Source: Escherichia phage phiSUSP1. From it: a DNA stretch of 64,000 nt. Location of the stretch: sequence record KT454805; one strand, written 5' to 3'. Below the pieces are notes generated by a model that was not told where the DNA came from, made no database searches, and worked only from the letters and a program-made list of their open reading frames with translations. Shown in pieces: positions 23,550 through 53,333 of the stretch. The translations under genes and the position numbers were made by a program. The first letter of the stretch is position 1. The number at the start of each line of letters is the position of its first letter.

Positions 23550-24446
23550 TCAACCTACTGACAAGGGAGCTTCAATCTTCCCTGCATGTCGATAGTCTTT
23601 GAAACCACCGATAAAGTCACTTGCCGTCATATGTTTGAGGTCATCCAGACATTTTAAATCTTGAACAATCTCAAACTTCGGTGCAGGAAACTCTTCATTC
23701 CCTAAAAGCTGGAATACCTGATTCATATGGTTCTGATAAATCTGAGTATCACCAAAAGTACCAATCAGATAACGAGGTGTATATCCAGTCATCTTACAAA
23801 GCACTTCCAAGATAAAACCATAAGACGCAATGTTAAATGGTAAACCTAAGAAGCTGTCTACAGAACGTTGATACCATTTTAAATCCACTTCACCAGTATT
23901 CGAGATGTAAATCTGGAAAAGCACATGACAAGGTGGTAAAGCCATTGCATTAGCTGAGATATCAGCAGCATTCCAAGCATTAACCAGCATGTAACGGTCT
24001 GTAGGAGACTTTTTCATCTTGGTAATCAGATTGTCTAGCTGGTCAACTGTAACGCCACCATGACCTTCTGAGGCTCTCCACTGGACACCATAGATACGTC
24101 CACCTGCATCATCCAACCAATCTTGCTCACTTGCATACGTTGTTTTAAGCCAACGTTCAAAGTCATTTGTCCAGATTGTCCAACGTTCCCCATCGTTTTC
24201 TCCCCAAGTACGATAGCGAAGATGACCAAGTTTATTCTCACCATTCAAGAACCATAAAGCTTCACCAATAACTTGTCTGGTCAGAACCTGTTTAGAGGTT
24301 AGTAAAGGAAAACCAGTACGCATATCAAAACGAAACTCTGGTGGTGAGAACGTTGAAATTACAGAACCAGTTCGGGTTTTACGCTGCTCACCAACTGTTA
24401 AAACATGGTTCAGAATATTTTTGTAACTTACATCTGCCTGTGACAT
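23550..24446 (-). CDS. thyA: thymidylate synthase
   Basis: catalytic-Cys motif ALPPCH; WYQRSVDSFLGLPFNIASY matches the T4 td/ThyA block from memory; DHFR immediately downstream. Confidence 0.9.
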   Translation of the reverse strand: MSQADVSYKNILNHVLTVGEQRKTRTGSVISTFSPPEFRFDMRTGFPLLTSKQVLTRQVIGEALWFLNGENKLGHLRYRTWGENDGERWTIWTNDFERWLKTTYASEQDWLDDAGGRIYGVQWRASEGHGGVTVDQLDNLITKMKKSPTDRYMLVNAWNAADISANAMALPPCHVLFQIYISNTGEVDLKWYQRSVDSFLGLPFNIASYGFILEVLCKMTGYTPRYLIGTFGDTQIYQNHMNQVFQLLGNEEFPAPKFEIVQDLKCLDDLKHMTASDFIGGFKDYRHAGKIEAPLSVG

Positions 24447-24447
24447 A

Positions 24448-24993
24448 TCAGAAACGTCCTCTTACTTGTGGAACATAGAAATTGACCACCCCAGATTTAT
24501 CATCCAGAGGTTTAGCCTGTATTCTAGCAAATAGTTCAGGTTCGTGTAAATACTCAAAGAATCCCTCTTCAGGAAGATACACAGTTGGCTCTTTAGTAAT
24601 TTCATAGATAACTGTGTGGTAAACCTCATCAGCAAACGGTAAAGCGGATTTTAAGATGTTTGCACCACCAATCACACAGACATTTTCATCAATCTGGCTG
24701 TCAATCTTCTTCAAGAATGCACCGAAAGAGTCTGGGTCAACCTTCGCAATAACAAAACCATCATTGTCAAAGTCTATCCCATAATATGGAAGGTTGTTTG
24801 ACAGAATCATGTTCTCACGATTTGGTAAAGGTTTACGTCCAAGAGTCTTGAAAGTCTCGTTACCCATGATTACAAGCTGGTTTTGAGTCAGCTTTTTAAA
24901 CTCTTTCATGTCTTCACGGTTACGCTCCCAAGGCATCCCATCAGGAGTACCAAACTCACCTTTACGACCACTTGCAAATACTAAACGAATCAT
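24448..24993 (-). CDS. folA: dihydrofolate reductase
   Basis: 181 aa; N-terminal MPWE motif and LVIMG..TF..LGRKPLP..N.ILS pattern typical of DHFR. Confidence 0.8.
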   Translation of the reverse strand: MIRLVFASGRKGEFGTPDGMPWERNREDMKEFKKLTQNQLVIMGNETFKTLGRKPLPNRENMILSNNLPYYGIDFDNDGFVIAKVDPDSFGAFLKKIDSQIDENVCVIGGANILKSALPFADEVYHTVIYEITKEPTVYLPEEGFFEYLHEPELFARIQAKPLDDKSGVVNFYVPQVRGRF

Positions 24994-25259
24994 TTGAAAA
25001 ACCCCTTAATGATAAACCAGTTGATGACGTTCTTAATAACTTTAACTGGATGGTAAATAATATGTGGATGTGGCTCATAACTTCCATAAGCCCAAAAAGA
25101 AACAACCTTCATACAACCACGGCAACGAGTGTACTCTGCTGCTACATGACCAGATACAATATCACTTACCTCACCTTGGAAGTCTGTACCACCACAATGA
25201 GGACAACGTATTGGTTCGCCACTCTGCATGTAACAGTGTTCAACTTTAAAGATTTTCAT
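24990..25259 (-). CDS. small zinc-ribbon protein (89 aa)
   Basis: CPHCGG ... CRGC cysteine pairs. Confidence 0.4.
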   Translation of the reverse strand: MKIFKVEHCYMQSGEPIRCPHCGGTDFQGEVSDIVSGHVAAEYTRCRGCMKVVSFWAYGSYEPHPHIIYHPVKVIKNVINWFIIKGFFK

Positions 25260-25774
25260 TTCTTATTCACCTTATATTCTTGTTCCAGTTTTACAATGAA
25301 ATCAAGGTCATCACCACACGATGAAAGGAAGTCTTCAAAGTGTTTTGGGATGAAATCTAAGAAGTTCATCGTTGCAAGATTGCCAGCAAGAGTTATGTAG
25401 CTGTTATTCTGACATTCAGCAGTGATTACATACTCACCAGCTTCTGGCCTTACCAAATCCACAATATCATCTAAAAAGATGTTAAGTAAAGCTTTGAAGC
25501 TACGTGGATACTGCATACCTTCATACAACTCAATGCTTGGAACCAGCTTCACAGAGATTGATTTAGAATCTCGAAACTCAGTAGTGAAGAGGTGAGTTGG
25601 TAAAAGGCAAAGTGCATCACCAGTATCTTCATCAAGAAACTCAATCGTTCCAGCTTCGTAGTTTGTCTCAATCAGGATTGTGCCCTCTTGGAGCCTACGA
25701 TTTTTCAGGTGTTCTTTGATAACACCCTTAAGCAGAATTGCTTCTGGTTCTGTTAAGCTGTTTCCAATCTTCAT
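25256..25774 (-). CDS. hypothetical protein (172 aa)
   Basis: ORF track; overlapping start/stop with neighbours. Confidence 0.4.
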   Translation of the reverse strand: MKIGNSLTEPEAILLKGVIKEHLKNRRLQEGTILIETNYEAGTIEFLDEDTGDALCLLPTHLFTTEFRDSKSISVKLVPSIELYEGMQYPRSFKALLNIFLDDIVDLVRPEAGEYVITAECQNNSYITLAGNLATMNFLDFIPKHFEDFLSSCGDDLDFIVKLEQEYKVNKK

Positions 25775-25775
25775 A

Positions 25776-26276
25776 TTAAACCTCTACAAAAGTTTGTTTG
25801 TCATTATCGTATGCGAAGAATTGTATAACCTTTTGAGTGTTCCAGTCAATCTTTTCATCATAAGAAAGACCTTTATCAACACGCTTTGCAACAGTCTGAT
25901 AGATTATCTCACGTAACTTCTCAAACTCTGTTCCACTACTGAACGGTTGCATAGTGACTTTCTTGTAACCCTCAACAGCTTTCTTGTTCCACTCTTGAGC
26001 AGTTGGAGAGGTTACTTTGTACAGCCGTGGGAACAGTTCATAACCCATCTTATTTTCTTCGTTAGCCATACGAAGTTGATGGAAGTACTCATTTACTCGA
26101 CCATCTTCTTCAAGCCATTTGTAAATCGTCTGCAAACGACCTAAATCGTTATTGTAATGTGCAGCACGTTTCACAGCACCTTTCTCAGTACGATACGGAG
26201 ACTTAGGAAGACTTAGCATACGTCCTGTCATCAGGTTGTATCCGAAGAACAAATCAATTTTTACGGGAAGAGACAT
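25776..26276 (-). CDS. hypothetical protein (166 aa)
   Basis: ORF track. Confidence 0.4.
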   Translation of the reverse strand: MSLPVKIDLFFGYNLMTGRMLSLPKSPYRTEKGAVKRAAHYNNDLGRLQTIYKWLEEDGRVNEYFHQLRMANEENKMGYELFPRLYKVTSPTAQEWNKKAVEGYKKVTMQPFSSGTEFEKLREIIYQTVAKRVDKGLSYDEKIDWNTQKVIQFFAYDNDKQTFVEV

Positions 26277-26620
26277 TTGATATCCTCATTTTTGAATACG
26301 AAAGTGGTATACTTAGTACCATCAACATCAAGCCAAGCACACATTACATCGACACCTTCAAGGTTGCTGTGAAGGTCACGAATAAAATGGTCTCGTACTT
26401 CTTTTGCACAGGTTGTCTCCAGTTTAATATTGGAGATTGCTGAACCAACAGCCATATAACCTTTTACACGATTCTTCTCAGAATGCTTAATCATTCCTTC
26501 CTGAACATAATCAGTTAGGTCATCAAGAATGTATTTCCCATACTGCTTCTCAGTTTCAGTAGGTTTCCCGTAGAAGCCAATTGCAAAGTTACCTTTGAAG
26601 ATTGCATTTTCACGTTTCAT
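26261..26620 (-). CDS. hypothetical protein (119 aa)
   Basis: ORF track. Confidence 0.4.
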   Translation of the reverse strand: MKRENAIFKGNFAIGFYGKPTETEKQYGKYILDDLTDYVQEGMIKHSEKNRVKGYMAVGSAISNIKLETTCAKEVRDHFIRDLHSNLEGVDVMCAWLDVDGTKYTTFVFKNEDIKCLFP

Positions 26621-26621
26621 A

Positions 26622-26951
26622 TTAATCTGACAGCCTTAAGTTAAAGTTAACACCAAGTTTTTCACAAGCTTTCAACATGTATTCAAGGGTAATCTTTCCA
26701 GTACCGTTGACAATGTTGGAAACACGACTTTGAGAGATATCACAAATCTTTGCGACTTGTGCCTGAGAAAGTTTTCTTTTCTCAATTTCTTTTTCAAAAC
26801 GGAATGCAACGAACTCTCTCATTTCGTCTACATCCATTGGACAGATATAACTTGCCATCTCATACTCTCTATCAGCTTCCCACTTATCTTGTGGAGCATA
26901 AGGGTCAAAGACTTCATTCATCTTTCTTCCTCCGTTTTCTGGAAGTGTCAA
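26622..26951 (-). CDS. HTH (XRE-like) DNA-binding protein
   Basis: helix-turn-helix-like segment LSQAQVAKICDISQSRVSNIVNG. Confidence 0.5.
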   Translation of the reverse strand: MTLPENGGRKMNEVFDPYAPQDKWEADREYEMASYICPMDVDEMREFVAFRFEKEIEKRKLSQAQVAKICDISQSRVSNIVNGTGKITLEYMLKACEKLGVNFNLRLSD

Positions 26952-27117
26952 TCAATGAATCTATGTTTGTTGCTCTGACGTTTTCACGAGTACCATTGAT
27001 ATGGTCATCCAGTGCTTTATCTACCTCAGAGTCATCTGCACAGTAAACTCGGAAGATAGCATAACCTTCATCGTCAAGCACTTCTCCATAGTTCTTCCTG
27101 CAATGATTCTTCTTCAT
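26914..27117 (-). CDS. small hypothetical protein (67 aa)
   Basis: ORF track; overlaps neighbour by about 38 nt, so the start is uncertain. Confidence 0.3.
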   Translation of the reverse strand: MKKNHCRKNYGEVLDDEGYAIFRVYCADDSEVDKALDDHINGTRENVRATNIDSLIDTSRKRRKKDE

Positions 27118-27118
27118 A

Positions 27119-27499
27119 TCATAGACCTACGCAGGTACGCTTTTCAACAAAATAGTGAACACCTTTGAAAGTTTCATCCATCATTTCACTTTCAGTATCA
27201 CTGACCTTCTCAATGCTCTTGGAATCAAGCAAGTCAACATCCTGAGTGACCATAGCATCAGAAACAGCTTCGTAGTAGTCTGCCATCACACGATATTTGT
27301 AATCAGTAATACGGTCAGACATTTCTATGACAGTTGGAGAAGATAACGGCTTAGTTAACTCCCCAGCATCTGTTACGACTTTACGAACAATCTGACAAGC
27401 CTCCATAGAGACCTTGCTAAAGTCTGCTTCAGGCATCTTCATAGCTGATGCACCAAAACTCAGAGTTGCCAGAATGACACCTACCATAAGCTTTTTCAT
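27119..27499 (-). CDS. secreted/periplasmic protein with cleavable signal peptide (126 aa)
   Basis: N-terminus MKKLMVGVILATLSFGASA with AxA cleavage site; two Cys; GAGGTGA RBS; first gene after the repeat-rich promoter region. Confidence 0.5.
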   Translation of the reverse strand: MKKLMVGVILATLSFGASAMKMPEADFSKVSMEACQIVRKVVTDAGELTKPLSSPTVIEMSDRITDYKYRVMADYYEAVSDAMVTQDVDLLDSKSIEKVSDTESEMMDETFKGVHYFVEKRTCVGL

Positions 27500-27543
27500 A
27501 ACTCACCTCATATAAAATTTTGTATACATTCAAGTATAAAAAT

Positions 27544-27582
27544 AAGCTATAACACCTGACTTGTCAACAGATTTTATAGCTT
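27544..27582 (-). promoter_or_regulatory. minus-strand promoter region with -35 TTGACA flanked by a 9-bp inverted repeat
   Basis: TTGACA on minus strand at 27563..27568; AAGCTATAA (27544..27552) and TTATAGCTT (27574..27582) are perfect reverse complements; -10 is not clean. Confidence 0.35.
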
Positions 27583-27602
27583 ATTTGGCAGATTTTTTAT
27601 AA

Positions 27603-27753
27603 GGCTACTGCCATCCTTCCATACCTCACCACACAAGACCAGACCATGCCGTACTCCACTTCACAGGACCAAGCATCACTTAAAAACCCTCTTAGAAGAC
27701 TCTTAAGTGGTGTAAGTCTCATTTTAATGTAGCTGAGACTAACTACCCATACC
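27603..27753. repeat. regulatory repeat module copy 1: CA-rich tract + 36-bp element A + 42-bp hairpin element B
   Basis: element A 27674..27709 is identical to 29230..29265; element B 27712..27753 repeats at 27855..27896 with 1 mismatch; plus strand almost lacks G across the CA-rich tract. Confidence 0.75.
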
Positions 27754-27816
27754 GAACCTTACTAAACCACACTTTACCTGACTGAACCCTACCAAACATC
27801 ACCATGCCAGACCAAA

Positions 27817-28003
27817 CCTTATTAAAAGACCCTCTTCAAAGACCTTTTAAAAAGGTGAGTCTCATTTTAATGTAGCTGAGACTAACTACCCATACCAAAC
27901 CAGACCGCACCAGACAAAACCACGCCAAACCGCACCTTACCCAACCTTAACACACCAGACCCAACCTTATTAAAAGACCCTGTTTAAAGACCTTTTAAAA
28001 AGG
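27817..28003. repeat. tandem duplication of about 148 bp (element C, CA-rich tract, element B)
   Basis: 39-bp element C at 27817..27855 and 27965..28003 (2 mismatches); B copy 2 at 27855..27896. Confidence 0.7.
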
Positions 28004-28022
28004 AGCCTCCGAAGAGGCTACC
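27993..28022 (-). terminator. intrinsic terminator for minus-strand gene 28031..28471
   Basis: on minus strand, hairpin AGCCTC-ttcg-GAGGCT followed by TTTTT. Confidence 0.6.
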
Positions 28023-28030
28023 TAGTCAAC

Positions 28031-28471
28031 TTAGAAAGGCTTTCTACGTTGCTTGTTAATGTTAGCTTTCATAGCAGCTAAATGGTTTTGCTGTTCAATC
28101 AGTCGTGAACGTTCTTGATGACTAAGTGCCATAGTGTTCACATTCTCAATTGCTTGGGTGGCTTGCTTTAAAGCTCGACCAATCTTACCAGACATTTTAC
28201 GTTTTGCAATAGTTGCTTGATGTTTTGGTTCAACTACACGATAACCCACACCCATTGAAGCAACCAGATAAATCTTTTCTTCTTTAAGAAGCTTTTCGAT
28301 AAACTTCTCAAGTCGGTTTAATCGTGTCAGAGAATAAGCCTTCATCTCATCTTCGTACTTAACAATATCACCCTGATAAGTTGGCTTCACAATACCTAAG
28401 AAGGTATCCATTTCAGAGTGTGATACAGTATCACCGTAACTAAACTTTGCTGCTAATGCTTTTGTATTCAT
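28031..28471 (-). CDS. hypothetical protein (146 aa), cassette gene 2
   Basis: ORF track; basic C-terminus; no recognisable motif. Confidence 0.45.
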   Translation of the reverse strand: MNTKALAAKFSYGDTVSHSEMDTFLGIVKPTYQGDIVKYEDEMKAYSLTRLNRLEKFIEKLLKEEKIYLVASMGVGYRVVEPKHQATIAKRKMSGKIGRALKQATQAIENVNTMALSHQERSRLIEQQNHLAAMKANINKQRRKPF

Positions 28472-28473
28472 AA

Positions 28474-29079
<606 letters not shown>

Positions 29080-29149
29080 TTAGTTGATTGTTAAGTTGTT
29101 TGTAAAGAACCCTCAACAGAAGACTCTTTAGAAACTTGGTAGATTTTTA

Positions 29150-29310
29150 ACGTGGCTACTACCATCCACCCACACCAGACCAAACCTAGCCTTACCCCAC
29201 CGCACCTTACCGAACCACACCTTACCATACATCACTTAAAAACCCTCTTAGAAGACTCTTAAGTGATGCTGGTGAGTACCCGTTGGTTTATGCTGCTCAG
29301 TATACTCACC
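29150..29310. repeat. regulatory repeat module copy 2: CA-rich tract + element A + B-like hairpin
   Basis: element A 29230..29265 is a perfect 36-bp copy; 8-bp stem hairpin GGTGAGTA...TACTCACC at 29271..29310; CA-rich tract 29150..29229 shares blocks with 27603..27673. Confidence 0.7.
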
Positions 29311-29322
29311 AAATTTTCTATG

Positions 29323-29511
29323 TCAACAACTTTCTAATAAAGTTTTATAAAGATTTTGCTTAACGACTCGCCTCACATGCCTATGCTCTTTCTTAATAAA
29401 GAGTGACCTCTTCTTGATAGAGCGCCTATTCTTGTAAGTGTTGCTAGGGTACTTATCGTGACCCGGACAACAACTGCCAGGATTTGTAAACTTGATAATC
29501 TCTCTTTTCAC
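29323..29511 (-). CDS. small basic ORF (62 aa), doubtful
   Basis: GTG start overlapping ligase stop by 1 nt; lysine/arginine-rich; may be non-coding leader. Confidence 0.2.
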   Translation of the reverse strand: MKREIIKFTNPGSCCPGHDKYPSNTYKNRRSIKKRSLFIKKEHRHVRRVVKQNLYKTLLESC

Positions 29512-30611
29512 TATTCATAATCCCTAATAACGAGACCAACAGGGAACTGTAAAGACCCCTTACGAGTCATCTTCTGGAACTGAACTGTCAAAGGTTTCCC
29601 GATAAACTCTTCAGGATGTTCAGCAAGATACTGTTTCTTCTCGTGTGTAGTCTTCCATGAAACATCTACAAAGACGTTAGGAAGAGTCTCTACAACGAAC
29701 TTACCATGACCACGCTTATCGGTCTTCACACCAGTAATTTTAAACTCTTCAGTGTGCATCTTCTTGTGCTTAATCAAGAAGTATGAACGGTGACCACACT
29801 CGTAGAAAGATTCTTCAGAGATTGAACGGTACATTGCACCTTCAAACTTAGCTTCAACCCACTTATCATGAGCTTCATCAAACTCTTCCCAAGAATTTAC
29901 ATGGATAGTCTGTACAGGAACAACTCTACAGGTATCCCCAAGCTGAACGAGAGGTGAACTGTCAATAACTTCACGACGCTCAGGCCAAGATTTTGAATTG
30001 TCACAGATATCATACCAGTAGAATTTAAGAAGGTGACGGTCTGGATTGTCAGCATTCTTAATCATAGAGACAATATCTTCTAAGTCCCAACCATGAGCAT
30101 AAATCTCACCATCAAAGTCTTCAACTTGTGGATGTAATTTAAGCAACAAAAGCAAATCTGGGATTAGTTCTGTTGGAACGTTGTAAACAGTATTCTCACG
30201 AGAATAAGCCGTGAAACTAACTGAATCAGCATTCTTTGAAATCCTACAACGGACACCATCAAGTTTTGGTTGAGCATCAGCAGGGAACTTCAGATACTTT
30301 GCATGGCTAACCTTTGCAGCATCATGAGCAAGCTGTACACCAACCTTCTCAACACACTCTGCTTCAGATTTTGTGTAAGCGTAACCTTTACGGTCAACCT
30401 GTTTCTTGTACTTAGCAGCAACTTCAAAGAGAGCTTGCTGTTCAGCATTACGCTCATTCTTTTTACCGATGTTTTTCGGTTCTGCTGTGTACTCTTCAAA
30501 CATCATCTTGCCATTTTCTTTACCGTAAGTTGTGACAACTTTATCACCTACGGCAACACATGACCAGACGTTGAAAGAACCATCTTTATTTTGTTTGTAC
30601 AGGATTGTCAT
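29511..30611 (-). CDS. ATP-dependent DNA ligase
   Basis: adenylation motif KLDGVRC; 366 aa, similar in size to T7 ligase. Confidence 0.8.
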   Translation of the reverse strand: MTILYKQNKDGSFNVWSCVAVGDKVVTTYGKENGKMMFEEYTAEPKNIGKKNERNAEQQALFEVAAKYKKQVDRKGYAYTKSEAECVEKVGVQLAHDAAKVSHAKYLKFPADAQPKLDGVRCRISKNADSVSFTAYSRENTVYNVPTELIPDLLLLLKLHPQVEDFDGEIYAHGWDLEDIVSMIKNADNPDRHLLKFYWYDICDNSKSWPERREVIDSSPLVQLGDTCRVVPVQTIHVNSWEEFDEAHDKWVEAKFEGAMYRSISEESFYECGHRSYFLIKHKKMHTEEFKITGVKTDKRGHGKFVVETLPNVFVDVSWKTTHEKKQYLAEHPEEFIGKPLTVQFQKMTRKGSLQFPVGLVIRDYE

Positions 30612-30796
30612 TACATCTCCTTGCTCTTATCTAAGAATCTTGCACCGCAGCTATTACATTCATATAAACCTAATTTTGTGTTGTCAGGTTTATGAAAGCA
30701 ATTACACCCACATTTGCAAGAGAACTCACCACCAGCTACTGTGATTATGAACGTCTCAATGTTTCCGTCTTCAGTTCTTACAGGTTCTGTTTTCAT
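30611..30796 (-). CDS. small Cys-rich zinc-binding protein (61 aa)
   Basis: CKCGCNC ... CNSC. Confidence 0.35.
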   Translation of the reverse strand: MKTEPVRTEDGNIETFIITVAGGEFSCKCGCNCFHKPDNTKLGLYECNSCGARFLDKSKEM

Positions 30797-30999
30797 TTTC
30801 TCTTACCACCAATTTCTACATCAATAACCTGAACATCACCAGCAACATCAAACTTGTGAATGACATTTTCTACAGTGTAAGTCCAACCTTCAATATGAAC
30901 CCATTCACCTTCTCGTGGTACGATTGGATTACGTTGAGCCACCGTTGTAGTAGAATGAACAACATCATAACGGTAGATATAGTTTACTAAAACTTGCAT
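30793..30999 (-). CDS. hypothetical protein (68 aa)
   Basis: ORF track; overlapping start/stop. Confidence 0.35.
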   Translation of the reverse strand: MQVLVNYIYRYDVVHSTTTVAQRNPIVPREGEWVHIEGWTYTVENVIHKFDVAGDVQVIDVEIGGKRK

Positions 31000-31007
31000 A
31001 ATTTTCC

Positions 31008-31235
31008 TTAAAAGAATAAGTCAGAGGCTTTTGGAGAATCTTGCACAAGACCCCACTCAGATTTCTGCCAATCAAGGCCACGATACCATGAAGCCATCGG
31101 GTAACCCATTTCACAGACAATCTTTCCATCTTTCATTTCAAAGAACTCATCAGATGTGAAGTTCTCATTACGTACTTTCTTACCTTGCTTCATTGCTTCA
31201 ACAGCTTCTTCAAAAGTCATTTTTGGTTTCTCCAA
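31008..31235 (-). CDS. DUF2829-like small protein (possible Tad2-like Thoeris signal sponge)
   Basis: N-terminal motif MTFEEAVEAMKQGKKVR and C-terminal W-rich region recalled as DUF2829 family hallmarks; 70-75 aa. Confidence 0.4.
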   Translation of the reverse strand: MEKPKMTFEEAVEAMKQGKKVRNENFTSDEFFEMKDGKIVCEMGYPMASWYRGLDWQKSEWGLVQDSPKASDLFF

Positions 31236-31238
31236 TAC

Positions 31239-31451
31239 TTAAAAGTTAATGTCGATGCGTTCACCCTTAAGGACTCCAGTGCGGTCTCTTGCAATCTTAC
31301 CGTCAACAATAAGGATATGTGCAGCCCTTAAAGAGTCACGATTAAAACCTTTTACGAACTTACTAGGCATCACTACAATGAGCATCTCCTGAATCAACTC
31401 TGGAGTGTAGCAGTTGTCGTGAAGTTGTTGGATAACGTCTGAAAGTGTCAT
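31239..31451 (-). CDS. hypothetical protein (70 aa)
   Basis: ORF track. Confidence 0.35.
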   Translation of the reverse strand: MTLSDVIQQLHDNCYTPELIQEMLIVVMPSKFVKGFNRDSLRAAHILIVDGKIARDRTGVLKGERIDINF

Positions 31452-31502
31452 AAACCCTCCTATACAAGATACAGTATAAGGTACTCTTCCATGAGCACCT
31501 TG

Positions 31503-32030
31503 TCAACTTAGTTTTGCAAACTCTCCGTGAAGTTTCATAGAAGCTTCACAGTAAGCTTTATGGGCTTCTTCAGGGGTGTCATAGTAGCCTAATGACATCT
31601 TTTTACCTTTATAGCTTATTTGCGCAACCCACCTACCAGACTTCTTCTTCAGGCTTACACCCTTATAGCCTGATTTATTGGTGGATAGTTTGCTTTTATT
31701 CCAAGCACTTTGGCAGTCGTCTGCTTCTCTTAAGTTTACAATCCTGTTATCAAGGGAGTCCCCATTACTATGGTCAATAACACCTTTAGGTAACCTACCA
31801 TACACGTACAGCCATGCGAGTCTGTGCGCTTTATGTGCTTTCTTGTCAAAATAGATAGTAATCTGCTTATGACCAGTTGAGTCAATCTGGAGGCTTCCCG
31901 CTACCTGTCCTGCGTACTGGCTATTAAAAACTTTAACAGCCTTTGAGTCGCCCTCTCTACGAAGCCAAGTAAAGACCCCTATTTCGGGGTCATAGTGTAG
32001 TAGTTCCTTTAAACGTTCTTGTGTAATCAT
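31503..32030 (-). CDS. HNH homing endonuclease with AP2 DNA-binding domain
   Basis: HNH region IDHSNGDSLDNRIVNLREA; AP2-like GYKGVS...GRWVAQISYKGKKMSLGYYDTPEEAHKAY; paralogous to ORF 54234..54725. Confidence 0.8.
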   Translation of the reverse strand: MITQERLKELLHYDPEIGVFTWLRREGDSKAVKVFNSQYAGQVAGSLQIDSTGHKQITIYFDKKAHKAHRLAWLYVYGRLPKGVIDHSNGDSLDNRIVNLREADDCQSAWNKSKLSTNKSGYKGVSLKKKSGRWVAQISYKGKKMSLGYYDTPEEAHKAYCEASMKLHGEFAKLS

Positions 32031-32040
32031 TTTGTCACCA

Positions 32041-34740
32041 TTAATGCACTTCCAACCACGATTTACCGACCTTACCAGTACCAGTTACCAGTGTTTTACT
32101 CTTTAGTCCTAAGTTCTTAGAGGCTTGCCCGTAATACCAATCAGTGACAGCCTTCACCTCTGCCGTCATACTTTCTGGACATTCCCAACTTGTCTCATCG
32201 TGATAGGAGCACAATAAACGAGCACCTATAGCTGGTTTACGACCGTTCAACTTCATCAAACCTTCGTCAATCATACGACGGCAAGCAAGGTTAATTGCCT
32301 CGTTCTGAATCTGGCTTTCCGAACCCATGAGCAAGTAGTTCAACAGTTTGTGTGGAGACTTACACCACAACCATGCTCCAGCAACCTTGACAAAACCACC
32401 TTTAGCAATTGCAGCAGTCTTACCAAATACCTCTTCAAGTGCTTTCTTAGTTGCTTTAAAGTCAGCTTCCAAGTCATCTAACAGTTTCTTAATCTTCGGC
32501 AAACGCACAAAGTAAGTCTGTTTAGTCAATGCACCTTCCTGAGTAGTCGCAGCTTTAATCGTCTTAGCAAACTTCTCATCACCAGCACCAAACAGCAACG
32601 CATAGATGCCATTCTTAGCTTTCTTACGACCTTTACTAATTTCGTGAAGAAGATTTTCATCCTGAGTCATACGACAAGTCAAGATGTCTTGTTCTTCGTT
32701 CAAACTGAAGTAGATACTGTTCAGTGTATGAGCATCAGTGCCTGAGTAAACTACGTACAAATCGTTTTCAGAGTCATAACGCAGATACTTATCAACTTCT
32801 GGATTCAGGTATTCGTCAAAGTGTTTGCAGTAATATCTGCCATCTTCCTGACGGATAAACTCAATCTCTTCTTTACCTTGAGTTACCGCTTTGGTGAACT
32901 CTTTGTCACCCATAAAGTTACACAGCAAAACAAGCTGTGCAGAGTTCATGTCAACGGAAACTACGTTGGTTCCTTCTTCACAAATCCAGACTGCCCTCAT
33001 TGGTTCACCGTAAACAGCAGCCCCAGAAGGTACGTTCACAATCCCGTATTGTGTCATACGTCCAGTTGAAGTACCAAACACCATTGCACCAGCACTCAAA
33101 CGACCATCTGGACGAATCTGGTTTAACCAACCCTTTTCATCATCCTTTGAGTTCTCAATAGTCCTGCGTCGGTGCATCAAAGTGTAGTACTTCGCAATCT
33201 TCTGTCCAAGTTCACCTTCAATCGTATCATAAGATGATTCAGTCAGTTTCGGTGAAGTACGAATCAAGCAAGGCTCAAGCAAATCTGTGTACTTCTTCAC
33301 AGACCAGTTGTGTTCGATGTACTGTACACCTTCATGCTCAACATAGTTCAACCCGCAACGGTCTACCATCTCTTGCCATTTCGGATGTTTACGAATCATC
33401 TTCTTGTTGTCTTTGAAGCGACAAACCTTCACCGGACGACCATCAGAATCTTTCTTGTAGTTCCAGTCATCAGGAATCCAGCCAAGAGTTTTCAGATAAT
33501 CCTTCACAACCGCAACCTGAGTCATGCGTGAAACTTCAAACTCAATTGGTGTATAAGGTGCATCAATCAAACCTGTGTAACGACTTGACTCAAGTTCGAA
33601 GTGGTTTACTACGTGATTGTTGTAGTACTTCACAGTCTTCACAGTCTTAACTGGTTTCCAGTCTTTGCACTTCTTATCAATCGCAGCATTCAACTCGTTA
33701 CAAACTGCACGAGCATCTTTCATTGCCACGAAACCTTCTTTGTACTCTTCTCCAGTAACCGTGTTAGTTGGAGTGTAGCAGTTACGCTTCTCAATGTTGA
33801 AAATCTTGGTAGTTGGTTTACCAAAAGGTTTGATAGCGTAAGTCTGCATCTCACCATTACGAACCTGCTGACGGAACTTAGTTTTTGGATACTTAGTGAT
33901 GCGCTTCAGACCATCTGCTTCACCAAATGTCTCAACGTACTCGTTCCAAGCTTTTGCAAACTCTTCACCAGTGACTTTACCTTTCGTCTTAATAGTCGGT
34001 GGCAGATGAGGCTCAACTTCAGCAGCTAATTCATCAGTCATTCTGTCAAGTTCTTTGACATGGAACTGCATAAGTTCAATATCAGCTTTCCAACCGTTGA
34101 TAGCTTGCTGACTCATCCAGAAAGATGTTTCTTTAGCTCGCATGTAGGTTTCGTAAGTGTCTACACCACACTTCTTCAACTTCAGGTATTCATTATCAAG
34201 AGCACGTTTAGCTTTGGCGTTGATTCGAATATCCTCAACAACACGGTTCAGAATGTCAGCATTCCAGACACCCCACTCTTCAATCTCTGGCTTACGAACA
34301 CCAACACGAGCACCCCATGCAGCCAAACCATGAGCACCTTTGTAACCTTTCGGTGTAGGTCTATCCATCCACTGAACACGAGACTGGATAAGAGAATCCT
34401 GAAAGAAGTCTCCCCAAGGTTTACACTTCGGATTATCAAAGTTCCATAAGTCTGGTGCAATGTGGTTAAACACCCACCAGTCATAGCCAAGACCGTTATG
34501 AATGCAGAGACGTTTTGCCTTAAGAGCAAACTCCACACCTTCACGAAGACCACCTTTGATGTACTTAGTACACTTGTGACCAAGGATAGGTTCATCGGTG
34601 AAGACCCACACAGCAGGTTCGTCACTGTCATCTTTGTAATCTGCAAATGCCATTACGTGTGCTTTTGTGAACTCAAGGAGTAACCCATCAGTTTCGGTAT
34701 CACCTACCAAGTGCAAGTTTTCAAAATCTACGTTTTCCAT
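32041..34740 (-). CDS. DNA polymerase, family A (T7 gp5-like) with 3'-5' exonuclease domain
   Basis: Exo I motif VGDTETDGL at N-terminus; 899 aa. Confidence 0.85.
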   Translation of the reverse strand: MENVDFENLHLVGDTETDGLLLEFTKAHVMAFADYKDDSDEPAVWVFTDEPILGHKCTKYIKGGLREGVEFALKAKRLCIHNGLGYDWWVFNHIAPDLWNFDNPKCKPWGDFFQDSLIQSRVQWMDRPTPKGYKGAHGLAAWGARVGVRKPEIEEWGVWNADILNRVVEDIRINAKAKRALDNEYLKLKKCGVDTYETYMRAKETSFWMSQQAINGWKADIELMQFHVKELDRMTDELAAEVEPHLPPTIKTKGKVTGEEFAKAWNEYVETFGEADGLKRITKYPKTKFRQQVRNGEMQTYAIKPFGKPTTKIFNIEKRNCYTPTNTVTGEEYKEGFVAMKDARAVCNELNAAIDKKCKDWKPVKTVKTVKYYNNHVVNHFELESSRYTGLIDAPYTPIEFEVSRMTQVAVVKDYLKTLGWIPDDWNYKKDSDGRPVKVCRFKDNKKMIRKHPKWQEMVDRCGLNYVEHEGVQYIEHNWSVKKYTDLLEPCLIRTSPKLTESSYDTIEGELGQKIAKYYTLMHRRRTIENSKDDEKGWLNQIRPDGRLSAGAMVFGTSTGRMTQYGIVNVPSGAAVYGEPMRAVWICEEGTNVVSVDMNSAQLVLLCNFMGDKEFTKAVTQGKEEIEFIRQEDGRYYCKHFDEYLNPEVDKYLRYDSENDLYVVYSGTDAHTLNSIYFSLNEEQDILTCRMTQDENLLHEISKGRKKAKNGIYALLFGAGDEKFAKTIKAATTQEGALTKQTYFVRLPKIKKLLDDLEADFKATKKALEEVFGKTAAIAKGGFVKVAGAWLWCKSPHKLLNYLLMGSESQIQNEAINLACRRMIDEGLMKLNGRKPAIGARLLCSYHDETSWECPESMTAEVKAVTDWYYGQASKNLGLKSKTLVTGTGKVGKSWLEVH

Positions 34741-34997
34741 TTTTACTCCCTCTCAAAATCATTGACTCAATACATTACTGCAAAAAGTTTCAAAAAGCAA
34801 GTTGACAATTCACTTGACAAGGTGTTAATCTTTGCGAAGTGGGTTTTAACTTAAAAGACTCCCTTTACAGATTAACTATACAGTTTCTTTAAAACCCTTA
34901 AAAGATTTTTAATAGCTTTTAAGAAGCTTTAAAGTTATACGTATAGAATACGTAAAGAAAACAGATTAAGTTTAATAGGTACTTAAAAGAGGGCATT
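34741..34997. promoter_or_regulatory. divergent promoter region between DNA polymerase and plus-strand replication block
   Basis: two TTGACA hexamers (34802, 34815), TATAGAAT at 34943, and TTAAAAGAC/AAAACCCTTAAAAGA motifs related to the intergenic repeats at 27.7 kb. Confidence 0.4.
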
Positions 34998-35420
34998 ATG
35001 CAGAGAATGTTTGTTCACCCAGACATAGCTGACTTCATGAGAGCTTTAAAAAAGTTGGAAGAACTTGACATTGCTGCTCAAAAGGAATACGCTTACCATC
35101 ATCGTCGAATGGTTGATGTTCAACATGAGATTGAACTCTCCGAAGGCTACGATGAAAGAATGAAATGTTCAGTCTTTGAGCATATGAAGGAGATATCGGC
35201 TGAGAGGCGTAAAGCAAAAGATACACTCTTCTTGATAGATTCTTTAAAAAAGAAGTTGCAAAACGGAACAGACTTAGATAACCTAGCAACACTGATTAGC
35301 GATGTAGAAAGTTCATGGGATAGACATTACTTCCCAAGGTCTGAAAAAGTTCTTGACTTTTCCTCTACAGAGAGCTTAAAGTTATCACGACAAACACTTA
35401 ACAAAATGAGAGAGAATTAA
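34998..35420 (+). CDS. hypothetical protein (140 aa)
   Basis: ORF track. Confidence 0.4.
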   Translation: MQRMFVHPDIADFMRALKKLEELDIAAQKEYAYHHRRMVDVQHEIELSEGYDERMKCSVFEHMKEISAERRKAKDTLFLIDSLKKKLQNGTDLDNLATLISDVESSWDRHYFPRSEKVLDFSSTESLKLSRQTLNKMREN

Positions 35421-35421
35421 T

Positions 35422-36225
35422 ATGACTACTGTAAATGAAATGCTGGCCTCTAAAGGTATCGATAGCAACTTTATGCTGAACACTATTGAAAGCCTTGCTA
35501 TCGTTATGCGTAGCAACACCTTCAGTTCACAAGTAATTCCTGAATCTTATCAGGTTAACGCAGAGATTTCTGATGAGTCAGCATTTCGCTCACAGGTTGA
35601 ACTGCTTCTGAATAACCGTCAACTGGCTCTGGCTTCAGTGGCTGTTGGTGTAGATGCCTTGGCTGGTTATGTCTTTGACAAGATGCAAACTGGCGACTAC
35701 AAAGTTCTCTCTGAAGAAGAGAAAGAAGCACTGCTTGAGTTCACTGAAGACGACACCTTCAACCTGATTATCAACTCAATTGCAAGCGTGATGGCTGTAC
35801 TTGAGAAACGTGTTACAGAAAAACTCCCACACTATGAAAAACTTGATTGGGGTTTTGCAGATATCTTTGAGCGTTCACAGGAAATGGTGAAGCTGACTAA
35901 AGAGCAACTTCAAGAGGTTGTTGACAATGAAGCTGAACGTGGAATTGATGAGATTCAGGTCAAACTGACCGCTCTGGTTCCTTCAATCATCACAGTGATG
36001 AGTATTCACGCTCTGTTCGAAGTTGCAGGTATGATTGATGCACCTATTGAGTTTGTGGAGCAGATTGCTGGTAATGTAAGTGGTGAAGCACTGCGTGAAG
36101 TGATTATGCAAACTGGTGCGGCAGTTCTTCAAGACAAGATTGCCATCCACTTCGGTGATGAATTTGTAGCAACTATTCAGGCTCTGTCTGAAAAAGAAAA
36201 GCTTGATTCTACACAAATTCACTAA
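35422..36225 (+). CDS. hypothetical acidic helical protein (267 aa)
   Basis: ORF track. Confidence 0.4.
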   Translation: MTTVNEMLASKGIDSNFMLNTIESLAIVMRSNTFSSQVIPESYQVNAEISDESAFRSQVELLLNNRQLALASVAVGVDALAGYVFDKMQTGDYKVLSEEEKEALLEFTEDDTFNLIINSIASVMAVLEKRVTEKLPHYEKLDWGFADIFERSQEMVKLTKEQLQEVVDNEAERGIDEIQVKLTALVPSIITVMSIHALFEVAGMIDAPIEFVEQIAGNVSGEALREVIMQTGAAVLQDKIAIHFGDEFVATIQALSEKEKLDSTQIH

Positions 36226-36240
36226 TAGAATTGTTTTCCC

Positions 36241-36266
36241 AAAGCCTCCTTAATTGGGGGCTTTTT
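36241..36266 (+). terminator. intrinsic terminator
   Basis: AAGCCTCC-ttaatt-GGGGGCTT followed by TTTTT. Confidence 0.55.
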
Positions 36267-36285
36267 CGTATGGAGATAAAGGTAT

Positions 36286-37029
36286 ATGAAAAGTATTATT
36301 GCATTTACTGGAAAGGCTCGTTCTGGTAAGGACACTTCCTGCATGTTGACAAAGAACTTTCTTCAAGAAGAAGAAGGTTACAACGTTCACATCTTTGCTT
36401 TTGCAGACAGTTTAAAAGAATCTGCTGCATACATCTTTGGGCTTGACTGGAATGATTTGTATGGCGAAACTAAAGAGACACCTCAAAAGTTCAACTTGAG
36501 ATTCTCTGACTTGTACTTTGCAGTTCAATGTTCACTTGAACAAGTATTCCCACACAAAAACTTACACCTTGACGTTAAGCTATGTGGTGAACTAACTGGA
36601 CGATTAATCATGGAACTGAAGAAGGTTGCTAAACCGACTATCTTAACCAGAATGGGGCTTAGTAAAACTTATAAGTTCTCTTCACGTCAGATTCAACAAA
36701 TCTGGGGGACTGAAGTTGTCAGGAAGGTTCTTGGAGAGAAGTTCTGGATTCGTGACCTTGCTGAAAGGATGGAAAGATTCTTTGAGTCGTGCTCAAGAAA
36801 TAACCAGTATGGCATCGCATTGATTAGTGACTTGCGATTTGACCATGAAGCAGAGTTCTTAAAGTCTTTTGACAGCCAAATCATTGAGGTAAAAAGAGAC
36901 AATCAGGTTAAGGTTTCATCACATAAATCAGAAAATGGAATTTCTACCAAATTTGAACGTGACATTATTCAAAACAATGGTAGTCTTGAAGACCTCGAAA
37001 ATAAGTTGAAAGCTATTATCATTAAATAA
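36286..37029 (+). CDS. deoxynucleoside monophosphate kinase (T4 gp1-like)
   Basis: P-loop AFTGKARSGKDT and C-terminal IQNNGSLEDLENKLK match T4 gp1 blocks from memory. Confidence 0.7.
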   Translation: MKSIIAFTGKARSGKDTSCMLTKNFLQEEEGYNVHIFAFADSLKESAAYIFGLDWNDLYGETKETPQKFNLRFSDLYFAVQCSLEQVFPHKNLHLDVKLCGELTGRLIMELKKVAKPTILTRMGLSKTYKFSSRQIQQIWGTEVVRKVLGEKFWIRDLAERMERFFESCSRNNQYGIALISDLRFDHEAEFLKSFDSQIIEVKRDNQVKVSSHKSENGISTKFERDIIQNNGSLEDLENKLKAIIIK

Positions 37030-39609: not shown

Positions 39610-39638
39610 TTGACAAGGGAGTATGAAGTCTGTAAGAT
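39610..39638 (+). promoter_or_regulatory. sigma70-like promoter (TTGACA, 17-nt spacer, TAAGAT) overlapping an inverted repeat
   Basis: hexamers read directly; GGAGTA...TACTCC inverted repeat spans the spacer and -10. Confidence 0.5.
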
Positions 39639-46021: not shown

Positions 46022-46076
46022 TTTTAATAACTATGAGGGTCGTAAAAGACCCTCTAAAATTAACTTGGAGAAAGAT

Positions 46077-46352
46077 ATGCTAGATTTAATTCGTAATGCA
46101 AGAGTACGTAGCAAAGATAGCTCACTATACTTATTCTATATCCCAAGACGGTCTTTGTATTATATTGCAGATTTGGACTTAAAAGTTAAGATGCCAGATG
46201 ATTCTTGGAAAGAGCATATACGTTATGTGGATTGCTTTAATCCAAAGCAAACATATGCAAGGCCACTAGATATGTTCAATAAGAACAATTGGGTTGTTTT
46301 GACGACAACCGAAGCCAGAAACTTTTTAGATACAGGAATCTTACCGGAATGA
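46077..46352 (+). CDS. small hypothetical protein between nrdA and nrdB (91 aa)
   Basis: in-frame ATG at 46077 with GGAG RBS; ATGA overlap with nrdB start. Confidence 0.3.
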   Translation: MLDLIRNARVRSKDSSLYLFYIPRRSLYYIADLDLKVKMPDDSWKEHIRYVDCFNPKQTYARPLDMFNKNNWVVLTTTEARNFLDTGILPE

Positions 46353-50056: not shown

Positions 50057-50620
50057 ATGAACTATGAACTAATCTATGACAAGTTAATGAAGAAAGCACA
50101 CTCTGAGAGGGGTGTGCCTTTAACATTTTACAAATGCCAAGGCTTAGGTTATGAGAGACACCATATCAAACCACTGTGTCTCGGAGGGGATAGATTTGAC
50201 GGTAGCAATATAGCCTTATTAACACCAAGGGAACATTATATTGCACACAAGCTTTTGGTTAAGATGCATCCTGAAAAGTACAAACTCTGGATTGCTTGGC
50301 AAAGGCTGTCTACAGATGGACTAAATAGAAAGGTTTCATCAAGAGACCATGAACACGTCAAACGTTTAAACTCAAAAGCTATGTCTATAATCAATAAAGG
50401 TAGATTGTTTACAGATGAGCATAGGTTTAGATTGAGTCAATCCCAGATTGGTAATACCAAGCCCAAAGGGTGTAAGAGGTCTTTAGAAACAAGGCAACGA
50501 ATGTCAGAATCTGCAAAGAAACCACAGGCGAAAAAGACGTGCCCATACTGCGGCATGACAGGTGGTGCAAGCAACATGACACGTTACCATTTTGAGAATT
50601 GTAAAAGTAAATCTATGTAA
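50057..50620 (+). CDS. HNH homing endonuclease inserted between nrdD and nrdG
   Basis: HNH motif ERHHIKPLCLGGDRFDGSNIALLTPREHYIAH; C-terminal Cys cluster. Confidence 0.75.
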   Translation: MNYELIYDKLMKKAHSERGVPLTFYKCQGLGYERHHIKPLCLGGDRFDGSNIALLTPREHYIAHKLLVKMHPEKYKLWIAWQRLSTDGLNRKVSSRDHEHVKRLNSKAMSIINKGRLFTDEHRFRLSQSQIGNTKPKGCKRSLETRQRMSESAKKPQAKKTCPYCGMTGGASNMTRYHFENCKSKSM

Positions 50621-50629
50621 GTAGTTGAC

Positions 50630-50670
50630 AAGGTGGTGTAGGTCTTGATAGGCTTACATCACCTTTTTTT
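50630..50670 (+). terminator. intrinsic terminator with 13-bp stem (two G-U wobbles)
   Basis: AAGGTGGTGTAGG...CTTACATCACCTT followed by TTTTTTT; a TTGACA hexamer sits immediately 5' at 50625. Confidence 0.6.
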
Positions 50671-50685
50671 ATTAGGAATCACAAC

Positions 50686-51657: not shown

Positions 51658-51898
51658 CTACTCTGGTAAGTGGATTTATAACATCAACAAGCTTGATGCT
51701 TGGATGGTTTATACTCAAGAAAAATTTGGTGAGAGTGGTTTAACGGCTTTAGCTGCACTTGTTAAGCAGGTAACATTCACAGTTGAAGAAAAATCAACAC
51801 TTGGGGATGGACTAATGCTTTTCACTGATGTAAGATACGGAAACATACAAGTCTGTATTGAAAAAGAAGAACTAGACCAGTTCTGTATTAAACTTTAA
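51620..51898 (+). CDS. hypothetical protein (about 92 aa)
   Basis: in-frame ATG at 51620 with GGAGAAAAG RBS within ORF 51542..51898. Confidence 0.35.
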   Translation: MAGKVTVNGEQSSYSGKWIYNINKLDAWMVYTQEKFGESGLTALAALVKQVTFTVEEKSTLGDGLMLFTDVRYGNIQVCIEKEELDQFCIKL

Positions 51899-51913
51899 AA
51901 GAGAGATATTAAA

Positions 51914-53062: not shown

Positions 53063-53333
53063 AGAACAATGGGAAATCAAAGAACTCATTAGTGAAGCTG
53101 GAAATGGTAGTGAGATGTATATGATACGTGGTCACGTCCCAGATGCACTTGCTATTGAAATGATTGACCACTACTCCAACGGATTCTATAAAGAATTTGG
53201 AGAGCCAAATATTGAACGTACTTGGACAAAACCAGTACCAGATGGAACAGGGAACTGTTCAGTTATCTATCACATTGTAGACCCAAAGAAATGTAAGTCA
53301 GCTATGGCTGTAACATTTGTAACTTTTGACTGA
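53055..53333 (+). CDS. hypothetical protein (about 92 aa)
   Basis: in-frame ATG at 53055 within ORF 53028..53333. Confidence 0.3.
   Translation: MAREQWEIKELISEAGNGSEMYMIRGHVPDALAIEMIDHYSNGFYKEFGEPNIERTWTKPVPDGTGNCSVIYHIVDPKKCKSAMAVTFVTFD

Follow-up and report, generated by a model that had tools for sequence, protein, structure and literature searches.

The question raised by this locus is how two opposed gene blocks that meet at a single short gap in the genome of Escherichia phage phiSUSP1 are transcribed and regulated; namely, whether the gap holds ordinary promoters only or, in addition, an array of protein-binding sites, an origin of replication or a structured leader RNA. We analysed a stretch of 64,000 nucleotides of this Felix O1-like myovirus (Ounavirinae, Suspvirus; record KT454805), referred to here as the window. 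Positions 34741–34997 (257 bp) are exactly the gap between the DNA polymerase open reading frame (ORF; 32041–34740, minus strand) and the first rightward ORF (34998–35420, plus strand), and it is at these coordinates that an earlier, sequence-only reading had placed a divergent control region. In a greedy ORF map the gap is the sole divergent junction of the window: structural genes occupy the plus strand as far as 23.5 kb, a second block on the minus strand extends from 23550 to 34740 with the family A DNA polymerase gene at its end, and a third block runs on the plus strand from 34998 on. Because the opposed blocks meet here, the leftward and rightward transcripts must start in or near the gap. 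Our favoured answer, to which we give a probability of roughly 0.45 as a whole model, is that the gap combines an early divergent promoter pair with an operator-like array of protein-binding sites.

Conservation was assessed in a sample of 26 non-redundant sequences from Suspvirus, Felixounavirus and Mooglevirus, and it delineates two host-type promoters, PL and PR1, whose −35 hexamers stand back to back, 1 bp apart. The elements of this part of the gap are as follows.

34772–34800, minus strand: PL, leftward host-type promoter, with −35 TTGCTT (34800–34795), N17 and −10 TAATGT (34777–34772), identified by conservation.
34781–34797, plus strand: a pair of A-tracts (CAAAAAGTTTCAAAAAG), UP-element-like, immediately before the rightward −35; each of the three paralogous modules has them (see below).
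34802–34831, plus strand: PR1, distal rightward host-type promoter, with −35 TTGACA (34802–34807), N18 and −10 TAATCT (34826–34831), identified by conservation.
34813–34821, no strand assigned: a second invariant TTGACA (34814) in the 9-bp palindrome CTTGACAAG, conserved, within the PR1 spacer.

The −35 hexamer of PL is invariant and its −10 hexamer varies at the two middle positions only, with a spacer in which diversity reaches 0.39; PL matches the consensus at 7 of 12 positions, TTG and TA...T included, and its start is predicted near 34765. PR1 matches at 9 of 12 positions, both hexamers are invariant save for position 3 of the −10, and its start is predicted near 34838. The A-tracts may act as an UP element, to judge from their position. 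The record of phage AYO145A carries a promoter annotation at PR1; the leftward promoter annotated in the same record is implausible, as it runs into the start codon. Transcription of ORF96, the Felix O1 homologue of the DNA polymerase gene, is seen within 5 min; the study in question assumed divergent promoters in the homologous gap, yet recognised none (PMC3185647). With a single divergent junction in the window, an early gene on the left and −35 and −10 hexamers conserved on both strands, the view of the gap as a divergent control region holds. The phage clearly uses canonical host-type promoters, TTGACA-N16–18-TAnnnT, elsewhere, for example at 39610, 56543, 57323 and 59763 (plus strand) and 29326 (minus strand). 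Reading the gap as a promoter region is well supported, and PL, PR1 or both are very probably real early promoters.

The second TTGACA has no −10 hexamer 16–18 nt downstream. An imperfect inverted partner of its palindrome, CTTTGCGAAG, lies 8 nt downstream of CTTGACAAG, and the pair brackets the PR1 −10, a feature that is found in both paralogous promoters; the sequence suggests that the palindrome may be an operator for early shut-off. A word common to positions 34814 and 31506 also occurs at 50625–50680 (TTGACAAGGTGGTG...), where it shares bases with the stem of an intrinsic terminator (AGGTGGTGTAGG...CTTACATCACCT, then a seven-T run), placing a promoter −35 within the terminator hairpin.

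Selection on the gap extends well beyond these promoters. The gap with short flanks is present in 257 phage records at 83–88% identity over 91–100% of its length; compared with Escherichia phage SUSP2, bases 32000–37000 are 97.8% identical and the 381 bp around the gap are 100% identical. Between genera, the gap DNA is approximately 87% identical, compared with approximately 75% for the adjacent gp048 protein (Suspvirus versus Felixounavirus). Mean pairwise diversity is 0.080 in the gap; the third-codon positions of the polymerase gene and gp048 give 0.22 and 0.20, respectively. Within the gap it is near neutral only at about 34758–34790. These comparisons show that the gap is under purifying selection, and some 200 bp are constrained, far beyond the need of two promoters. 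A check for small ORFs found none conserved in the gap, and the Rfam 15 covariance models gave no match to it (best score, 20 bits compared with a gathering score of 56; E = 0.23; implausible family).

Downstream of PR1, the gap carries about 12 copies of an 8-bp box bounded by CT and AG, and the same stretch holds two −10-like hexamers, a long dyad and an easily melted segment.

34850–34989, no strand assigned: cluster of 8-bp CT-W4-AG boxes, about 12 units with a start-to-start distance of 8–13 bp, identified by pattern and conservation.
34850, 34863, 34876, 34897, 34916 (inverted), 34927 and 34982: strict CT-W4-AG boxes.
34887, 34908, 34939, 34950 and 34971: degenerate boxes of the CT-W4-AG family.
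34940–34952, plus strand: PR2, candidate proximal rightward promoter, a −10-like TAGAAT (34944–34949) in the local palindrome CGTATAGAATACG, without a −35.
34875–34880, minus strand: mirror-image −10-like TATAGT inside the box CTATACAG, invariant in the 26 relatives, without a −35.
34863–34957, no strand assigned: 95-bp imperfect dyad of four helices, centred near 34910.
34843–34992, no strand assigned: least stable duplex of the window in a nearest-neighbour profile, approximately 25% G+C, a candidate DNA-unwinding element.

The boxes comprise CTTAAAAG (three copies and one inverted), CTTTACAG, CTATACAG, CTTTAAAG and degenerate forms; CTTAAAAG occurs 4 times in the gap and 11 times in 64 kb. 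The pattern CTWWAHAG, which covers the units in the corresponding gaps of Erwinia and Yersinia phages, has 8 matches in the gap compared with 0.47 expected (0 of 5,000 composition-matched shuffles of the region), and the gap is the densest 257-bp stretch of the window for this pattern, with 8 of its 64 matches. The boxes are also more conserved than the DNA between them: diversity is 0.031 in the strict boxes and 0.093 outside (1 of 156 circular shifts as low), and 0.032 and 0.133, respectively, when all 12 hand-drawn units are used (0 of 156). At 6 of the 7 strict boxes, 25–26 of the 26 sequences keep a match to the family, and the variants remain within it, CTTAAAAG being replaced by CTTAATAG, CTTAACAG or CTATAAAG and CTTTACAG by CTTAACAG or CTTTATAG. 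The boxes at 34850 and 34982, which are direct repeats, change in parallel in Mooglevirus (to CTTAATAG). We rejected a plain k-mer enrichment against the whole window (P ~ 1 × 10−8), which ignores AT-richness, and the highest 8-mer multiplicity (four copies) is reached by 232 of 5,000 dinucleotide shuffles of the region (4.6%); as the k-mer test is confounded in this way, we rely on the family pattern and its conservation.

PR2 lies within the cluster. Its TAGAAT varies at positions 3 and 4 only and stands 50 bp before the first rightward gene; no −35 match is present 16–18 nt upstream, and boxes occupy that place; the equivalent promoter of Erwinia phages is canonical. Mooglevirus carries TGTATAACATACA at the surrounding palindrome, a symmetric change. 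The TATAGT on the other strand is possibly a second leftward promoter, or simply part of a box, as far as the letters tell.

The boxes persist where the remainder of the gap has diverged. The homologous gaps of Erwinia and Yersinia phages cannot be aligned to this one by BLAST, yet they carry CT-W4-AG boxes, together with one distal CTTGACA that is followed 17 nt downstream by TACATT or TAATGT. Erwinia phages have a canonical proximal promoter, TTGACT-N18-TGgTATGAT, at the PR2-equivalent place, and their boxes (TTCTTTAAAGAA, TTCTATAGAA) take the form of extended palindromes, which fits binding by a dimer.

We also identified two further copies of the promoter module outside the window, in SUSP2: one at the other divergent junction, at approximately 80.6 kb, and one in a gap between small genes of the early region, at approximately 69.7 kb. 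The order of elements is A-tracts, TTGAC(A/G), CTTGACAA 6–7 bases further on, TAnnnT 17 nt after the hexamer and then GGGGTTTTA and/or CTTAAAAGA boxes. The layout of PR1 recurs in the two paralogues as TTGACA-N17-TAGCCT and TTGACG-N17-TACATT, and the paralogous junction has TTGACT-N17-TACCAT at the place of PL. The window has a single TTGACR-N5-8-CTTGACAA (0.04 expected), the remaining 25.7 kb of SUSP2 has two, and the combination is found at the homologous spot in nearly all of the relatives that we retrieved. Local alignment of the gap with the 69.7-kb copy scores 49 over approximately 94 bp (21.9 ± 2.8 for shuffled sequences; 0 of 1,000), and with the 80.6-kb copy 36 (1 of 1,000 shuffles). 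Strong hairpins (z = −4.4 and −6.8) also follow the two paralogous promoters, and ACTTAAAA lies within a loop or at one. Between about 64.8 and 69.2 kb of SUSP2, another unit is repeated in most of the approximately 87-bp gaps between small early genes; it consists of GCTTTACA-N18-TAGTAT with a T4-early-like −35, a GGGG...CCCC hairpin in the spacer, CAGATAAAGAG and a conserved CCTAAACTGGAGATTCAAAA ribosome-binding region.

The boxes recur at high density in a third setting, a gene-free stretch of 1.67 kb at a convergent junction of SUSP2 (70.7–72.4 kb) that is approximately 80% conserved in 255 phage records. Here CT-W4-AG boxes often stand head to tail at a spacing of 10–11 bp, with CTTAACA every 11 bp and CTTGTTA, and are plus-oriented in the left half and minus-oriented in the right half. 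Given these head-to-tail arrays, not all boxes can be hairpin arms. The repeat_region annotations in this stretch are uninformative on genome ends.

The sequence-only reading had drawn its kinship elsewhere, proposing that a short A-rich motif shared with repeats at 27.7 kb and 29.2 kb (elements A, 27500–28030, and C, 29077–29322) marks a common binding site or promoter class. The strings that it quoted are present in the gap (TTGACA at 34802 and 34814, TATAGAAT at 34942, TTAAAAGAC at 34851 and AAAACCCTTAAAAGA at 34891), and there is some literal sharing of words: TTAAAAGAC occurs at 27822 and 27970 in element A, as well as four times in coding DNA and not in C, and A and C each hold one AAAACCCT (27683 and 29239, respectively). 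An alignment of CTTTAAAACC--CTTAAAAGATTTTTAA with CTTAAAAACCCTCTTAGAAGACTCTTAA pairs 22 of 28 positions. This sharing does not exceed chance. The best local alignment score of the gap with A or C, 27, is reached by 61 of 1,000 and 41 of 1,000 dinucleotide shuffles, an unrelated gap (46022–46288) scores 26 against A, and A scores 90 against C. The shared letters are not conserved, the CCC of AAAACCC being CTC or GTC in relatives, and the quoted 15-mer is unique to the gap within the window. Conversely, the A/C family word AAGAGGGTYTTT (minus strand), the hairpin CACTTAAGAG...TTAAGTG and the G/T-rich pentamer tract are all absent from the gap, and the CT-W4-AG pattern has no match in A or C. Elements A and C are a repeat family of their own with a different architecture; on the transcribed minus strand, each has a sigma-70-like promoter, the hairpin CACTTAAGAGTCTTCTAAGAGGGTTTTTAAGTG, an approximately 70-nt G/T-rich tract of GGTNN-type pentamers and a second AAGAGGGTYTTTTAA word. 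They have no Rfam match, and the number of units is variable, element A being 531 bp long here and 358 bp in SUSP2 (98% identical). A binding site or promoter class common to the gap and these two elements is therefore barely credible. The idea of a recurring class survives with other partners: the box family is enriched and conserved and its module recurs, and the comparisons above indicate a shared promoter class with the 69.7-kb and 80.6-kb modules of SUSP2. The expectation for an AT-rich genome, against which the earlier reading asked its motif to be judged, is exceeded by the box family and not by the words shared with A and C.

On our favoured reading, host sigma-70 RNA polymerase would transcribe leftward from PL into the DNA polymerase operon and rightward from PR1 into the operon for primase/helicase and nucleotide metabolism. 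The PR1 transcript would pass through a 160-bp leader, the DNA of which is the mirror-symmetric box cluster. The boxes would be sites for a sequence-specific, probably dimeric, putative DNA-binding protein that is conserved in the subfamily, and the bound protein would block or pause transcription from PR1, drive the −35-less PR2 by occupying boxes in its −35 region, or both; such regulation would amount to an early-to-middle switch. We infer the transcript starts, the binding protein, the direction of regulation and the action of the boxes on DNA rather than RNA from the arrangement and conservation of the elements.

Parts of this scheme have counterparts in known systems. The divergent pair resembles the sigma-70 early promoters of lytic phages (for example those of T4 and T5, with A-rich UP elements) in its host-type hexamers at 17–18-nt spacing, A-tracts, hexamer conservation and an early gene in Felix O1, and differs in that its −10 hexamers are weak (3 of 6 matches), that an extra invariant TTGACA without its own −10 lies in the spacer and that the starts are predicted only. 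Plasmid R1 parC, in which ten 11-bp ParR sites flank the par promoter, and the met-boxes of MetJ are operator arrays, and the boxes resemble them as many short, partly palindromic sites about one helical turn apart, placed symmetrically by promoter elements and conserved beyond their spacers; unlike these arrays, the boxes are irregularly spaced (8–13 bp) and belong to a lytic phage without a partition system, with no ribbon-helix-helix protein among the 30 proteins that we scanned. In T4 middle promoters, a MotA box, (a/t)3TGCTTtA, is centred at −30, approximately 12 bp upstream of the −10, and there is no −35. PR2 likewise has a −10 and no −35, AAGCTTTA ends 12 bp upstream of it, and it lies downstream of an early promoter for the same replication genes; however, the core of AAGCTTTA is AGCTTTA rather than TGCTTTA, with A for a conserved T, T4 is no relative of this phage, and the Pfam scan of 30 neighbouring proteins gave no MotA or AsiA match. 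We regard the likeness to T4 middle promoters as a lead only. The same applies to the analogies in general, including those considered below: they are leads, membership in the systems compared is not established, and several defining features that we looked for are absent.

The dyad offers a different account of the same DNA. The boxes are arranged as a mirror around its centre, and its helices (CTTTAC/GTAAAG, CTATAC/GTATAG, CTTTAAA/TTTAAAG and TTAAAAG/CTTTTAA) can, according to the folding models, form a hairpin in RNA or single-stranded DNA. Its score against its own reverse complement is 47, compared with 23.9 ± 5.3 for shuffles (7 of 2,000 as high), and the fold of 34858–34962 has z = −4.2 as RNA and −3.6 as DNA (each 0 of 200 shuffles), and −5.3 for the minus strand. 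Across 16 distinct sequences, 98.3% of the pair cells are kept, compared with at most 58% when the partners are slid. The outer helix has changed on both sides in two lineages (Felixounavirus, CTTAAC/GTTAAG; Mooglevirus, CTTTAT/ATAAAG), and three pairs are broken in some lineages; this covariation is thin (two events) and nevertheless hard to explain by independent protein sites. The hairpin, 95 nt long and starting approximately 25 nt past the predicted PR1 start, could be a structured leader RNA, acting as an RNase III-type processing or stability site, or as a nut/put-like antitermination element for the 29-kb rightward operon. The strong hairpins behind both paralogous promoters agree with this, and the Felix O1 genome paper (2010) left transcription timing and the read-through of numerous terminators unexplained (PMC3185647). 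We nonetheless consider a leader RNA unlikely to be the explanation. Only two independent compensatory events were seen, the full 175-nt leader folds like shuffled sequence (z = −1.0) and the non-transcribed strand is at least as stable; in Erwinia phages the long dyad is weak or absent (z = −0.8 to −1.9) and the boxes persist. Pairing also leaves the head-to-tail arrays elsewhere unexplained, the parallel change at 34850 and 34982 carries no pairing signal, and Rfam holds no match. Lambda nut, HK022 put and the T7 R0.3 RNase III site are promoter-proximal leader RNA elements, and the gap shares with them a conserved hairpin that lies 25–120 nt past an early promoter and precedes a long operon with terminators inside it; the paralogous promoters have hairpins as well. 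In contrast to these systems, no N-like protein was recognised, and the hairpin in the gap is AU-rich with large internal loops and thin covariation.

Equally, the easily melted DNA behind PR1 could be an origin of replication. PR1 would fire into it, the duplex would be opened by the transcript or the extruded dyad, and the products of the flanking genes, a T7-type primase/helicase and a family A polymerase, would load there, with the boxes as sites for an origin-binding factor. The segment 34843–34992 ranks first in the window for low stability at both 100-bp and 150-bp window sizes, the AT-rich imperfect palindrome with its repeated boxes lies between the divergent polymerase and primase/helicase operons with a promoter reading in, and cumulative GC skew has its minimum at the gap. 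The anatomy is that of several known origins: the T7 primary origin consists of promoters and an AT-rich stretch, T4 oriF and oriG of a promoter and an unwinding element, and in herpes simplex oriL an AT-rich palindrome separates the divergently transcribed genes for the polymerase and ICP8. As in these, a promoter leads into the least stable AT-rich DNA and an AT-rich palindrome separates divergent replication genes; unlike them, the module of the gap is present three times per genome, beside genes unrelated to replication. We discarded the skew minimum as evidence because it is confounded by gene orientation, the turn coinciding with the switch of gene strand at 34.9 kb and again at 23.5 kb. 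Moreover, no initiator was recognised in the scan of 30 neighbours (a fold comparison of gp048 gave no informative match), promoter regions are AT-rich in any case, and the gap has no DnaA boxes or GATC clusters. We consider an origin, like a leader RNA, unlikely to be the explanation. The most economical account, two or three ordinary promoters with boxes and dyad as by-products of AT-rich, UP-like, low-complexity DNA, finds some backing in the unremarkable repetition within the region (the 8-mer multiplicity above), in periodicity tests that are marginal or negative and in the AT-richness that is normal upstream of strong promoters. We judge it very improbable: more DNA is constrained than promoters need, the box enrichment and the dyad both stand out from shuffled sequence, the fold has z ≤ −3.6, substitutions stay within the family, and the boxes persist in genera in which the gap is otherwise unalignable.

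Several observations weigh against the promoter-and-operator reading that we favour. A mechanical promoter scan called nothing in the gap, PL and PR1 being weak consensus matches below its threshold, and the Felix O1 study had likewise recognised no promoter here. The box pattern was partly shaped after viewing the window, and the enrichment test is thus not fully independent. Regular spacing is marginal: the lag-11 autocorrelation has z = 2.9 with a family-wise value of 8% after correction, and the spectrum of the conservation profile has no significant 10–12-bp periodicity. With the period-11 mini-arrays that Tandem Repeats Finder reports across 34898–34959 also below threshold (scores of 32–39), we do not claim a periodic footprint. 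Conserved boxes with variable spacers are equally expected from a four-helix hairpin with internal loops, and the two compensatory pairs favour a structure that really forms. The two candidate binders that we considered were rejected. An HTH_3 protein (109 amino acids, 26622–26951) has the sole DNA-binding domain among the 30 small neighbouring proteins scanned; it is present in the same 257 close relatives and missing from the box-bearing Erwinia and Yersinia phages. The gp048 protein is conserved across the subfamily (298 records) and is predicted to be a long helical hairpin (predicted local distance difference test score, 74), with no DNA-binding fold (best structural match, E = 0.23); a weak resemblance to the coiled coil of P4 Psu is not meaningful. 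Pfam searches of the 30 neighbouring proteins gave no ribbon-helix-helix, initiator-like, MotA-like or AsiA-like match, and the gap contains no consensus site for the host factors IHF, Fis, DnaA or CRP and no GATC. The searchable literature holds no transcript start, footprint, origin mapping or binding protein for any Ounavirinae phage.

Operator array, origin and leader RNA are not mutually exclusive, and a region of promoters and operators can also be an origin. A broader possibility, which we consider decidedly unlikely as a whole, is that CT-W4-AG boxes are the recognition element of a regulatory or replication system throughout the Ounavirinae, in which one factor would act on phased mirror arrays at early promoters and on the 1.67-kb field of boxes, and the 95-bp dyad would be the master site that couples the early-transcription switch to the start of replication. 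The factor could be a protein on DNA or, since the CTTAACAA and CTCTTAACA boxes resemble boxA, Nus-like host factors on nascent RNA.

At its two ends the gap merges into the ribosome-binding regions of the flanking genes.

34741–34757, minus strand: 5′ leader of the DNA polymerase gene with the Shine–Dalgarno sequence GAGGGAG (reverse complement of 34746–34752), identified by sequence; 34745–34753 is invariant in the 26 relatives.
34986–34997, plus strand: Shine–Dalgarno sequence GAGGG (34989–34993) and spacer of the first rightward gene, overlapping the last box; AGAGG is invariant.

According to the annotated SUSP2 record, the plus-strand genes encode gp048 (140 amino acids), a 267-amino-acid protein, dNMP kinase, primase/helicase, exonuclease and ribonucleotide reductase. 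RefSeq and PHROGs (phrog_4251) call the product of the second of these genes (35422–36225, flanked by the genes for gp048 and dNMP kinase) a ‘minor tail protein’; it has no Pfam match, and the label looks doubtful. On the other side, the DNA polymerase gene is followed directly by a gene for an HNH-AP2 homing endonuclease (31503–32030, minus strand). The polymerase match of a relative, Salmonella phage PC79-13, falls into two pieces with approximately 0.8 kb of additional sequence, suggesting a mobile insertion in the gene. A 75-amino-acid protein encoded at 31008–31235 (minus strand) has a Tad2-like (Thoeris anti-defence 2) Pfam match of 24.2 bits, just below the curated cut-off of 25 bits (E = 4.9 × 10−5). 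Two other gaps of approximately 260 bp in the ORF map (51658–51913 and 53063–53325) are coding-like and without promoter or terminator features, and may represent genes that are interrupted or whose start was misplaced; not far away, 50057–50620 encodes a NUMOD3/HNH-type homing endonuclease.

A divergent promoter region at this place had already been assumed for Felix O1; what is new is the map at the level of elements, the box family, the conserved dyad and the module in three copies. Felix O1-like phages are widely used for the typing of Salmonella and E. coli, for biocontrol and for therapy. Promoters with coordinates, boxes, a dyad and three modules per genome make the question of transcription timing and passage through terminators testable in this group. 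If the boxes do bind one factor, they would mark out the early regulon, or else the origin, of an entire phage subfamily, and would provide handles for engineering.

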